Shown here piece after piece: positions 21,859-50,537 of a DNA stretch of 64,000 nt; within the stretch, counting starts at the first letter, position 1, and every line of letters starts with the position of its first letter. The stretch is from an uncultured Gammaproteobacteria bacterium (GTDB lineage Bacteria; Patescibacteriota; Microgenomatia; Levybacterales; UBA12049). Made by a program: the position numbers and the translations under genes. The stretch lies in assembly GCA_964490105.1 (NCBI GenBank), contig CAZAZU010000001.1, positions 155,440 to 219,439 on the forward strand, written 5' to 3'. The notes under the pieces were generated by a model. It did no database searches, was not told the DNA's origin, and was given only the letters and a program-made list of their open reading frames with translations.

Positions 21859-21934
21859 TGGACGGTTAGCTCAGCTGGTAGAGCGTCGCATTTACACTGC
21901 GAATGTCGCGAGTTCGATCCTTGCACCGTCCACC
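21859..21934 (+). tRNA. tRNA-Val(TAC)
   Basis: GGACGGU/ACCGUCC acceptor, anticodon loop UUUACAC, encoded CCA. Confidence 0.85.
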
Positions 21935-21935
21935 A

Positions 21936-22008
21936 CGCTGAGGTAGCCAAGGTGGTCAAGGCACCTGTCTGAAGAACAGGCTATATGTGTTCGACTCACA
22001 TCCTCAGC
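21936..22008 (+). tRNA. tRNA-Phe(GAA)
   Basis: acceptor GCUGAGG/CCUCAGC, anticodon loop CUGAAGA, T-loop UUCGACU; starts 2 nt after tRNA-Val. Confidence 0.7.
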
Positions 22009-22056
22009 ACTGAAGAATTGTAAGTTTTTCTGCATAAGCATTTCATCCAAGCGTAA

Positions 22057-48758: not shown

Positions 48759-49292
48759 ATGGACGCTTTATTAGAAAGTCTTTATCAGTTTTGCCTAGAA
48801 CATCGAAAAAAACACTCTTGCGGAGCTGTTCCCTACCAGAATGGTAAATTTCTCATAGACCTTGTCTCTTCAATTAAGGCCAAAAAAATTCTAGAGGTAG
48901 GTACCGGAGTTGGATATTCAACTGTTTGTATGTGTTTAGGAAATAATGAAGCAACTGTTGAGACTATAGATAAAGATGCAATCCACATTTCTTTAGCAAA
49001 AGAAAACTGTGATAAATTAGGCTTGAGCGAAAGGGTCCTTTTCCATGAATCCAGTGCAGAGGATATCTTCCCCAAGCTTACGGGACCGTATGATTTGATT
49101 TTCTACGATGGAAATACTCCTCAAAAAAAATTTGTTGCACAGTTCGAGAGATTATTGAAAAAAGGAGGAATAGCGCTTAGCGCAAATTTATTTTTAAGTG
49201 ATCCTTCTGGAGGAGGATATCTGAAATTATTGCAAGACGGTAGGTGGGATACAAAAATTGAAGGCGACACTGCGATTTCAGTTAAATTATAA
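48759..49292 (+). CDS. class I SAM-dependent O-methyltransferase (family 3)
   Basis: SAM motif ILEVGTGVGYST; acidic DKD; length 177 aa. Confidence 0.75.
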   Translation: MDALLESLYQFCLEHRKKHSCGAVPYQNGKFLIDLVSSIKAKKILEVGTGVGYSTVCMCLGNNEATVETIDKDAIHISLAKENCDKLGLSERVLFHESSAEDIFPKLTGPYDLIFYDGNTPQKKFVAQFERLLKKGGIALSANLFLSDPSGGGYLKLLQDGRWDTKIEGDTAISVKL

Positions 49293-49321
49293 AAAGGTAA
49301 TTACGTCTTGAGCTAGTCGAA

Positions 49322-49396
49322 TGGGTGGATGACGGGGATCGGACCCGCGACCTTCTGGACCACAACCAGACGCTCTACCACTGAGCTACAACCACC
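49322..49396 (-). tRNA. tRNA-His(GTG) with G-1, atypical features
   Basis: G-1 + GUGGUUG ... anticodon loop UUGUGGU, C73, encoded CCA; U5-U68 mismatch and T-loop UCCGAUC (C at position 55) are unusual. Confidence 0.7.
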
Positions 49397-49400
49397 ATGT

Positions 49401-49643
49401 CTACTTACTAATTAACCATTTAATATATTTCTTACTTTTATACGATTTTAACTTTTTTTCTCTTAATCTTGCTTCTTCTAAAGTGCTAAATTGCTCTTTG
49501 TAAACTAATCGATATGTTTCTAGAATTCTCGTTGTTCGAGTGTAACCCTTAAGGTGTTGCTTTAGCCTTCTTTCAAGATCGTTAGTAGAACCTATATAAA
49601 ACCTATCTGTTTCGGGATTATGTAATATATACATCCAAAACAT
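49401..49643 (-). CDS. small GIY-YIG nuclease (YhbQ/UPF0213-like)
   Basis: WMYILHNPETDRFYIGSTNDLERRLKQH matches GIY-(10-11)-YIG ... R ... H core; stop 4 nt before tRNA-His 5' end. Confidence 0.75.
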   Translation of the reverse strand: MFWMYILHNPETDRFYIGSTNDLERRLKQHLKGYTRTTRILETYRLVYKEQFSTLEEARLREKKLKSYKSKKYIKWLISK

Positions 49644-49656
49644 ATTTGTTTTACAA

Positions 49657-49705
49657 GACGCTCTACCACTGACCCCGATTTAATCGGGGCTGAGCTACAA
49701 CCACC
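49657..49705 (-). pseudogene. duplicated 5' fragment of tRNA-His (acceptor 5' strand, D-arm, start of anticodon stem) interrupted by 17-nt palindrome
   Basis: GGUGGUUGUAGCUCAG[CCCCGAUUAAAUCGGGG UCA]GUGGUAGAGCGUCU identical to tRNA-His positions -1..31 apart from the insertion. Confidence 0.7.
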
Positions 49706-49803
49706 ATGCTTTAATTATACCAGAGCACTCCTCTAGCCACAATACAGAGCCCTATAGTTTGGTCATTGATCTTACGCTTGATTTGAGCTAAACTCCCTTC
49801 GTT

Positions 49804-50163
49804 ATGTCAAAACCAAGATTTGAAGGAGAAGAAAGACCGCCAATCGGGCCCAATACTTATCTAGGACAAAGTGAACCATTAAATTTGGTTCAAAGACTTG
49901 CTCATGTTTATGATAGTCCGGTTGTTCCTGGAAGGCCTACGGTTTTAACTGATGGAGATGGCCATGTAATACCAGGAAAAGGCGGAACAGTTAGGCCAGT
50001 ATCGCCTAGAGAAATTAGAGGCGTTTTAGATCAAGGTGCATTTGGTGCAGAAATGAACCCAATGGATAGGGATTGGGCTGACCAAAGAGCTTTAAGAGAG
50101 GCTAGAAGAGATGCAGCAAAAGAAATGAGAAGAGGAACGAGAGATTCTAGAAACAGTCGCTAA
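49804..50163 (+). CDS. hypothetical Arg/Pro/Gly-rich protein, GC-shifted orphan
   Basis: 119 aa; N-term GEERPPIGPN resembles 40090..40779. Confidence 0.45.
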   Translation: MSKPRFEGEERPPIGPNTYLGQSEPLNLVQRLAHVYDSPVVPGRPTVLTDGDGHVIPGKGGTVRPVSPREIRGVLDQGAFGAEMNPMDRDWADQRALREARRDAAKEMRRGTRDSRNSR

Positions 50164-50537
50164 TTTGGAAAAATAAATTTGAGAACGTGAGGAGTAAAAA
50201 CTAAAAATCCTACAGCAATGCTTCCAGTTGCTACAATTAAGACCATTCCTGCAGATACATCTTTAGCGTATTTGGCCTCTTCTTTATAATCTTTAGTAAC
50301 TAAATCCACGATTTCCTCTATGGCTGTATTTATCATTTCAGCGGAAATCACCAGAAGAATAATCATGCAGATAATAGCCTTCTCGAATTGGTTTAGCCCG
50401 AAGATGAATGTGGCAATAACTACTAAAACTGCTATTACTATATGAATACGAATATTTCTGTTATATCTTATCGCTACTTTTATGCCTTCTATGGCATATC
50501 CTACTGATTCAATGAATGTGGGTTTATCGCCTTTCAT
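50160..50537 (-). CDS. dgkA: diacylglycerol kinase / undecaprenol kinase family (DgkA)
   Basis: 3 TM; NTAIEEIVD motif (xSAIE-type). Confidence 0.7.
   Translation of the reverse strand: MKGDKPTFIESVGYAIEGIKVAIRYNRNIRIHIVIAVLVVIATFIFGLNQFEKAIICMIILLVISAEMINTAIEEIVDLVTKDYKEEAKYAKDVSAGMVLIVATGSIAVGFLVFTPHVLKFIFPN

Follow-up and report, generated by a model that had tools for sequence, protein, structure and literature searches.

A GIY-YIG nuclease gene between a palindrome-split fragment and an intact copy of tRNA-His: a candidate class of tRNA-embedded mobile elements

How does a nuclease gene come to lie between a tRNA gene and a piece of that same tRNA gene, and which of the two copies supplies the tRNA? 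The question is raised by a 64-kb stretch of bacterial DNA (contig CAZAZU010000001.1, hereafter the window), in which a short ORF (open reading frame) encoding a GIY-YIG nuclease is followed on the minus strand by a complete tRNA-His gene and preceded by a partial copy of the 5' part of that gene. A sequence-only reading of the window had taken this arrangement for the footprint of a mobile insertion into, or a homing event at, the tRNA-His gene. We lean toward interpreting the locus as a selfish, free-standing, homing-type GIY-YIG gene that resides in tRNA transcription units, is accompanied by a partial duplication of its host tRNA gene and is paired with a cognate mobile palindrome.

Results

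Along the minus strand, ARAGORN, Rfam, Pfam and exact matches place the three parts that had been described, a 5' tRNA-His fragment, an ORF and a full tRNA-His gene, where the sequence-only reading had put them (Table 1), and its spacings hold as well, with the ORF starting 12 nt past the fragment and its stop codon lying 4 nt ahead of the encoded G-1 of the full gene. The same DNA was recovered in independent ENA and Logan assemblies and an identical protein is also present in NCBI, so the locus is not an assembly artifact; the closest protein homologs carry names of the Patescibacteria or candidate phyla radiation (CPR), and the G+C content is 36.7%, from which we judge the host to be a member of that group. 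The partial copy aligns exactly to the 5' part of tRNA-His, as had been proposed, but it is not contiguous, since a 21-nt interruption that had been overlooked separates its two pieces. Piece A spans the 5' acceptor strand, positions 8-9, the 5' D-stem strand and the first two D-loop bases, and piece B spans the remainder of the D-arm, position 26 and the first three anticodon-stem bases, beyond which homology to tRNA-His runs 3 nt further with one mismatch. In a similarity search against the whole window, pieces A and B were found at E=0.003 and 2e-4, respectively. The interruption consists of a 17-nt perfect palindrome and a second copy of TCAG (tRNA positions 12-15), the tetranucleotide that ends piece A (49693..49690) and opens piece B (49672..49669). 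This palindrome occurs once in the window, in the fragment, against a chance expectation of 0.05, and within the window there are no other GIY-YIG genes and no further partial tRNA copies.

The sequence-only reading had left unclear which tRNA-His copy is functional and had suggested scoring both, and this question is now largely resolved. The full gene has the anticodon GTG (ARAGORN), matches the Rfam tRNA model in the normal range (61.8 bits, E=1.3e-12) and is 100% identical in the window and in loci L003 and L004, that is, in three species whose neighboring genes differ at 48-66% of synonymous sites. The fragment, which lacks the 3' half and is split by the palindrome, gives no Rfam tRNA match even at E<=10, and ARAGORN too reports the full tRNA only. 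The full copy is therefore the sole candidate for the functional tRNA-His gene. A split, permuted or intron-containing tRNA was rejected on the same evidence, the downstream tRNA being contiguous at its Rfam score and the fragment scoring nothing. The two oddities that had been noted in the full copy, a U5-U68 mismatch and a T-loop reading UCCGAUC (C55), are both real in the Rfam alignment and, judging by their conservation, are fixed features of the gene. Among the 13 tRNAs of the window only tRNA-His has a GTCCGA T-loop, and the other 12 read GTTCGA. The U55C change is also found in the element-linked tRNA-Ile of L019 and tRNA-Arg of L021 and is absent from most linked tRNAs; its presence in only 5 of ~35 linked tRNAs led us to reject it as an immunity mutation.

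The encoded protein matches Pfam GIY-YIG PF01541 over residues 1-73 (E=6.5e-14, 52.4 bits, cut-off 22.6), and a PDB search with a profile of 29 homologs returned the UPF0213 proteins 1zg2 (6.6e-7) and 1ywl (2e-6), then SLX1. The AlphaFold2 model (pLDDT 94.6) has the element order E-E-H-H-E-H-H, which predicts the three-stranded sheet with flanking helices of the GIY-YIG fold, and its top Foldseek matches were 1zg2, Slx1, HIGLE, UvrC and I-TevI, with only 1zg2 under E=0.001. The GIY-YIG assignment, on which the earlier interpretation had been staked, passes profile and fold searches alike. Residues Y5, Y16, G18, R26, H30 and E62 are invariant across the 29 homologs, and from what is known of I-TevI and UvrC we take the roles of the catalytic Tyr/Tyr, Arg and Glu to be filled here by the corresponding residues. 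The protein is of the Slx1-like or UPF0213 (YhbQ) type in being a stand-alone domain of 80 aa with no extra domain and no invariant Asn after E62. A separate DNA-binding domain for long-site specificity was not found in it, and beyond the catalytic core there is only a conserved basic C-terminal helix, KKLKSYKSKKYIKWLI. A 2006 superfamily survey (PMC1564403) describes bacterial Slx1-like proteins as minimal stand-alone domains without the conserved C-terminal Asn, with a presumed repair function and a proposed ancestral position, and it reports no adjacency of their genes to tRNA genes.

Ten pairwise comparisons gave dN/dS of 0.04-0.16, and by this measure the ORF is under strong purifying selection. 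In some homologs the ORF runs into the tRNA gene, which gives the protein a C-terminal tail such as GPVAQR. An endonuclease of a group I intron was rejected: the tRNA is uninterrupted, a search of 48800-50200 for intron families returned none at E<=10, and the NCBIfam grpIintron_endo score of 26 bits falls short of its cut-off (56). An anti-phage defense system was likewise rejected, PADLOC yielding only a weak match to a generic 'HEase' motif. Searches of PHROGs returned N-terminal motif matches only.

The arrangement recurs at many other tRNA genes. A pattern scan, with one genome per species, gave 42 loci encoding relatives of the protein, and in 33 of them a same-strand tRNA gene starts within 30 nt of the stop codon. 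The linked tRNAs are those for His, Lys-UUU, Lys-CUU, Arg-UCU, Arg-CCU, Gly, Ile-UAU, Leu and Asn (seven amino acids), and the host groups include Microgenomates, Parcubacteria, Bacteroidetes and Omnitrophota. In 29 of 35 loci, positions 1-12 of the downstream tRNA recur ahead of the ORF at a distance of up to 160 nt, compared with 6 of 916 non-cognate pairs. This upstream copy almost always comes in two pieces, positions 1-15 and positions 12 to ~25-31, with the same palindrome between them and positions 12-15 duplicated, and the duplicated tRNA segment forms repeats of 20-50 nt whose inner end varies by locus (positions 24-50). Fragments without a palindrome exist at L028 and in the second unit of L007, so the insertions of ORF and palindrome are separable events. 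Conserved element ends are lacking, with just 4-20 A/T-rich nt between the ORF and tRNA-derived sequence on either side, an organization that is typical of endonuclease genes spreading by break repair and not of transposition. By these comparisons the window locus is a member of a recurrent architecture and not a one-off scar. Many close homologs are known solely from contigs of 0.5-2 kb; the element may, like a repeat, often break assemblies.

Gain and loss of the element can be followed at a single site. At one tRNA-His gene, three Levybacteria loci in synteny show different states of occupancy: L025 is the bare gene, L026 has the fragment, the palindrome, a 31-nt spacer and the tRNA with no ORF, and L024 retains only the C-terminal half of a decayed ORF. 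Since one and the same upstream flank is joined to the full tRNA in L025 but to the fragment in L026, the fragment occupies the gene's original position. Presence and absence of the element thus vary at one genomic site, as expected of a free-standing homing endonuclease gene. Tandem double units are found at L007, L021 and L123. At L019 (1746-1905) a complete tRNA-Ile(UAU), with CCA encoded, comes after the ORF, and directly behind it lies the remnant of another tRNA-Ile allele. This remnant is made up of positions 7-18, a palindrome and positions 31-73, and the two alleles differ in the T-arm and, in a compensatory way, in the acceptor stem. The ORF therefore came together with a foreign tRNA, and it looks as though this tRNA replaced the native one. 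The fragments of L008, L017, L023 and L042 derive from a tRNA other than the downstream one, so that fragment, palindrome and ORF can move as a block. In a neighbor-joining tree of the protein, which with 80 residues is poorly resolved, the tRNA identities are interspersed, His for example appearing in two places. The proposed mobile or homing footprint is supported in outline by the empty, remnant and decayed series, the tandem units and the many tRNA targets, with the correction that it is not a simple target-site-duplication footprint, because the fragment comes from a different tRNA in four loci and palindrome-free fragments exist.

The palindrome insertion is the family's most regular feature and has a distribution of its own. 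A strict pattern found 28 17-mers in 25 of 43 loci, with the central bases oriented as TTAAA in 14 and TTTAA in 7, and an exact 4-nt duplication accompanies 21 of the 28; the stems show compensatory C-G to T-A changes. At L021 the palindrome has TAAA on both sides, and the unusual tRNA of this locus has TAAA at its positions 12-15, for which reason the 4-nt repeat is considered a true target duplication. Nested or tandem palindromes are present at L004, L008, L013, L023, L031, L037 and L041; at L023 one lies inside the loop of another and a second one follows after a further TCAA, and L013 has a variant, CTCCGA-N5-TCGGAG, at the D-loop 3' junction with a TAGA duplication. Solo copies with TCAA/TTGA duplications also occur outside tRNA contexts (e.g. 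L025 2728). A second clade of the protein (35-48% identical), from Bacteroidetes, Omnitrophota, Staskawiczbacteria and one unclassified bacterium, carries a palindrome of its own, CCTGCCTGCCGGCAGGCAGG, in the D-loop region of the fragment and without a duplication, so that palindrome type tracks protein clade across phyla and not host phylum. A mirror layout was found at L179 (1366-1880, an uncultured Dokdonia sp. assembly) and L180 (1377-1800, a Cytophagales genome), in which an intact tRNA with its terminator is followed by the ORF and then by a 3' fragment of that tRNA. The palindrome of the clade splits this fragment, in L179 where the anticodon loop begins and in L180 at the T-loop; in L179 a second copy of the terminator follows the 3' fragment. 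Judging from these contexts, the palindrome is itself mobile and prefers hairpin loops.

In some of the solo copies (L053 1963, L070 2643, L072 3892 and others) the TTGA duplication lies within TTGAC(A/T), which resembles a -35 box, and owing to the duplication a complete hexamer again follows the palindrome. When metagenomes and viral contigs were scanned for exact matches, the 4-nt duplication was present in ~25 of 143 cases among the matches listed, with 0.6 expected by chance. Most of the 17-mers among those matches have no duplication, tRNA context or GIY-YIG neighbor (e.g. AAAA-palindrome-TTTT, which is terminator-like) and are probably chance matches or terminators, and the exact 17-mer was rejected as a specific marker for this reason. 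The palindrome has the inverted-repeat symmetry and the 4-nt duplication of a miniature inverted-repeat transposable element (MITE), and solo copies exist, but at 17 bp it is far under MITE size and many of the metagenome 17-mers are probably not true copies. No Rfam family matched the leader or the palindrome in the window and nine related loci.

Locus L003 comes from a related species and is syntenic with the window locus; its 55 nt of fragment plus palindrome are 100% identical to those of the window, although synonymous differences reach 66% in dagK, whose product DagK is 93.6% identical, and 48% in the ORF. For the tRNA-derived bases of the fragment, this identity could be due to gene conversion from the adjacent tRNA. 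The palindrome, unlike those bases, has no second copy from which it could be converted, which argues that it is constrained in place.

The extended -10-like box upstream of the fragment (TGgTATAAT, Table 1) is probably the original tRNA-His promoter, and it would now drive fragment, ORF and tRNA as a single transcript. The box is conserved at L003, and TATAAT is found 8-26 nt upstream of the fragment at L004, L006, L012, L015, L017, L022, L023 and L044. A consensus promoter scan did not report the TGnTATAAT box because it has no -35 match, so the call is made from direct reading and conservation. The promoter-like string GGTATAATTAAAG precedes the fragment in the window and at L003; at L004 (1405-1500) the same string lies between a truncated fragment, with palindrome nested in palindrome, and the ORF, and this locus has a second TATAAT upstream of the fragment as well. 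We rejected the idea that the full tRNA is immune because the nuclease site is a fixed one extending over the promoter or leader, as TATAAT lies anywhere from 8 to 26 nt ahead of the tRNA start.

Discussion

In the homing interpretation that we favor, the nuclease gene would be lodged inside the tRNA-His transcription unit with the promoter on one side and the mature tRNA on the other, and the order of displaced 5' part, ORF and complete tRNA would arise because a tRNA cannot tolerate an insertion. The nuclease would break an unoccupied tRNA gene, with a cut expected at or near tRNA-gene positions 12-15, and the tRNA homology on both sides of the ORF would template repair of the break, so that the ORF would be copied into the empty allele, in effect a homing without an intron. 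Without a promoter of its own, the ORF would be read from the tRNA promoter, and RNase P would then free the tRNA. The palindrome for its part appears to land at stem-loop junctions, which include the D-loop, the anticodon loop, the T-loop and the loop of another palindrome, and to generate a 4-bp target duplication; the nuclease, as a member of the Slx1-like structure-specific branch and probably as a dimer, may recognize or cut at the palindrome or hairpin. Membership in that branch and the stem-loop-junction landing sites are the reasons that recognition of a hairpin or cruciform, or of a palindrome by a dimer, is favored over recognition of a long linear site.

What the palindrome might do within the fragment can be envisaged in several ways. 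It may destroy the nuclease site in the dead copy and so block re-cutting, it may interrupt a direct repeat through which the ORF would be lost, or it may act as an operator. The last possibility is suggested by pure analogy with I-TevI, which, as Edgell and colleagues are said to have reported in 2004, represses its own expression through an operator that resembles its homing site but has no cleavable site; here too a target-like sequence stands between promoter and nuclease gene and would be disabled at the presumed cleavage position.

Several points weigh against the homing interpretation. The intact downstream tRNA has the same D-loop sequence as the fragment, which leaves self-immunity unexplained, and an 80-aa catalytic core is without the DNA-binding domain of characterized homing GIY-YIG enzymes. 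Searches with tblastn found no homologs in 50,697 phage or 72,556 plasmid records and so point to no vehicle for horizontal spread. The usual single copy per genome, the strong selection and the retention at the same locus in related species would also fit a domesticated host gene. Finally, known GIY-YIG chemistry does not explain the origin of the first duplication and of the inserted palindrome DNA, nor is it explained how a hydrolytic enzyme yields a templated 17-bp palindrome insertion.

A bolder proposal, which we regard as tentative, is that the mini-nuclease and the 17-20-bp palindrome together form a new structure-targeting mobile system, one that would cut hairpin-forming DNA at stem-loop junctions (tRNA-gene arms, rRNA helix 25, palindromes) and thereby drive both insertion of the palindrome, with its 4-bp duplication, and copying of its own gene into stable-RNA genes. 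It is equally tentative that in such a system the tRNA would be regenerated by partial duplication and not by splicing. A host function is rather unlikely in our estimation. In that case the ORF would be a DNA-repair or RNA-metabolism gene that is vertically inherited and co-transcribed with the tRNA as a domesticated housekeeping module, and the leader hairpin would be a regulatory 5' UTR (untranslated region) or operator. Low dN/dS, the one locus usually found per genome, the synteny of the window and L003 loci with perfect conservation of leader and palindrome, the failure to find phage and plasmid copies in the collections searched and the proposal that the bacterial Slx1-like clade is ancestral and repair-related (PMC1564403) can all be read in this way. 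The empty, remnant and decayed alleles at one site and the tandem units do not sit well with it, however, nor do the seven tRNA identities scattered over the protein tree, the foreign tRNA beside a destroyed native one at L019, the relatives inserted at the 23S rRNA helix-25 site, a palindrome that makes target duplications and nests in itself, and the many homologs on ~1 kb contigs, which are repeat-like.

The ORF lies between direct repeats (20-50 nt) of local tRNA sequence, as would be produced by a Campbell-type integration in which a small circular element, bearing the ORF together with an attP that equals the 5' half of the tRNA, had recombined with the gene and duplicated the shared segment around the ORF, as a mirror image of the tRNA 3'-end duplications made by integrative elements. 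An empty site such as L025 would be regenerated if the repeats recombined, and the mirror-image 3' version does exist. We nevertheless consider this improbable: the unit has no integrase or recombinase and its only gene is for a hydrolytic nuclease, the length and inner end of the repeat vary (positions 24-50) in a way that a fixed att core does not, and no circular or extrachromosomal form is known, with none in the phage or plasmid collections. A conventional tRNA-targeting integrative element was rejected on similar grounds, there being no recombinase in the unit and the duplicated part being the 5' end, at variable length. Strongly disfavored, and in our judgment very improbable, is a pair of unrelated events, in which an old local duplication or decay of a tRNA-His gene left copies with a nuclease gene between them by chance and a small repeat landed later in the pseudo-copy, the three parts having no functional connection. 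Palindrome-free fragments (L028 and the second unit of L007) would be compatible with such a history, as would the observation that, among the matches listed, a GIY-YIG gene lies beside the metagenome 17-mer in only 7 of 134 loci. It is countered by the three-part layout in at least 25 independent loci at different tRNAs, by a second clade with a different palindrome at the equivalent place in three phyla, and by the fact that the only copy of the palindrome in 64 kb falls exactly in the fragment.

For the homing interpretation the closest functional precedent is intronless homing in T-even phages. T4 SegB, a free-standing GIY-YIG enzyme encoded in a tRNA cluster, recognizes the T-psi-C motif conserved among tRNA genes and promotes inheritance of the region in which it lies (PMC2330249). 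There too the GIY-YIG gene lies between genes and beside tRNA genes, and it spreads through break repair with co-conversion of flanks, as is proposed for the window element. SegB differs in being much larger, in having a DNA-binding region, in being phage-borne, in its use of the T-psi-C box and in lacking a partial tRNA duplicate or palindrome, whereas the window element has an 80-aa Slx1-like core, is chromosomal, lies inside the tRNA transcription unit and usually comes with a split pseudo-copy.

Endonuclease ORFs of fungal mitochondria are similar in combining a GIY-YIG ORF with a partial duplication of the host gene, of which one copy is functional and the other a remnant, as at L019. In the atp6 case of Allomyces, a mobile endonuclease ORF at the end of the gene reportedly carries a replacement segment, and the resident segment is left as a pseudo-fragment. 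The fungal cases concern organellar protein-coding genes, usually at the 3' end, and have no cognate palindrome.

Colonization of a stable-RNA gene without splicing is shared with non-intron insertions in CPR rRNA genes and with the classical 23S rRNA helix-25 intervening sequences. Relatives of the nuclease with 40-46% identity lie on the same strand inside the 23S rRNA helix-25 site at L033 (1469-1751), L034 (1469-1751) and L039 (1267-1557), in each case with the ORF in the loop of a 19-21-nt inverted repeat. An ORF flanked by an inverted repeat is also present at L032, L038 and L040, in non-rRNA contexts and with no tRNA. Tsurumaki et al. 2024 (PMC11270868) described GIY-YIG ORFs in non-intron insertions of CPR rRNA genes, with which the helix-25 relatives agree, and deemed them sparse and outside homing; that paper has no mention of tRNA genes, duplications or palindromes.

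The pairing of a short palindromic repeat with a single nuclease-type gene, the palindrome being a non-autonomous mobile unit, also recalls repetitive extragenic palindromes (REP) with their associated transposases (RAYT) and MITEs. In those systems RAYT is a transposase of the HUH-Y1 type, REP insertion leaves no duplication and MITEs measure 50-500 bp; the window system has a unit of 17-20 bp, a 4-bp duplication in the CPR type and a hydrolytic GIY-YIG partner. An IS200/IS605 or REP/RAYT element was rejected because the sole ORF is that of the GIY-YIG protein and 21 of 28 copies have the 4-nt duplication.

Taken together, the loci suggest that mini-nuclease elements embedded in tRNA genes and paired with a cognate mobile palindrome form a class that is widespread and apparently undescribed. 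Full-text searches of the literature returned no description of the architecture or of either palindrome sequence, and since most subscription journals are outside their coverage a prior description is possible. If our interpretation is correct, such elements would add to introns and rRNA intervening sequences a third mode of residence of a selfish nuclease gene within an essential RNA gene, in which part of the gene is duplicated, an intact copy is rebuilt and the tRNA promoter is exploited. The element is widespread in CPR/Patescibacteria, which have the smallest known bacterial genomes. Were its specificity real, few known site- or structure-specific nucleases would be as small as the 80-residue core. 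Bacteroidetes carriers include a Catalinimonas sp. genome and the uncultured Dokdonia sp. assembly, and as both genera have cultured members, experiments may be feasible. A more practical consequence is that tRNA pseudo-fragments can confuse tRNA annotation.

Features of the locus and neighboring genes

Table 1. Positions of features at the tRNA-His locus of the window
Feature	Positions	Strand	Basis or remark
Promoter-like box, extended -10 TGgTATAAT	49714..49722	-	Direct reading; 8 nt 5' of the fragment's G-1
Fragment piece A: CAT, G-1 and tRNA-His positions 1-15	49690..49708	-	Exact match to full tRNA
17-nt perfect palindrome CCCCGATTAAATCGGGG = CCCCGATT-A-AATCGGGG	49673..49689	.	In fragment D-loop; TCAG direct repeat on either side
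Fragment piece B: tRNA-His positions 12-28 (sequential numbering)	49656..49672	-	Exact 17-nt match
A/T-rich spacer tgtaaaacaaat, 12 nt	49644..49655	-	Between fragment and ORF
GIY-YIG ORF, 80 aa, UPF0213/bacterial Slx1-like type	49401..49643	-	Pfam, PDB profile search, AlphaFold2, Foldseek
Spacer acat, 4 nt, stop codon to G-1	49397..49400	-	CAT also precedes the fragment
Complete tRNA-His (GUG), encoded G-1 at 49396	49323..49396	-	ARAGORN; Rfam 61.8 bits

A small hairpin, AAAAC/GUUUU, encloses the AUG of the ORF at 49632-49651, where AAAAC of the spacer can pair with GUUUU right after the AUG. At L003 its stem is retained with three loop bases changed, and it is not seen in more distant loci. 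On the plus strand, a neighboring ORF of 119 aa (49804-50163) has no Pfam match and is 41% identical in the syntenic L003, compared with 93.6% for the adjacent diacylglycerol kinase. Elsewhere in the window, which has 13 tRNA genes in its 64 kb, tRNA-Val(UAC) and tRNA-Phe are separated by a single base (21860-22010).

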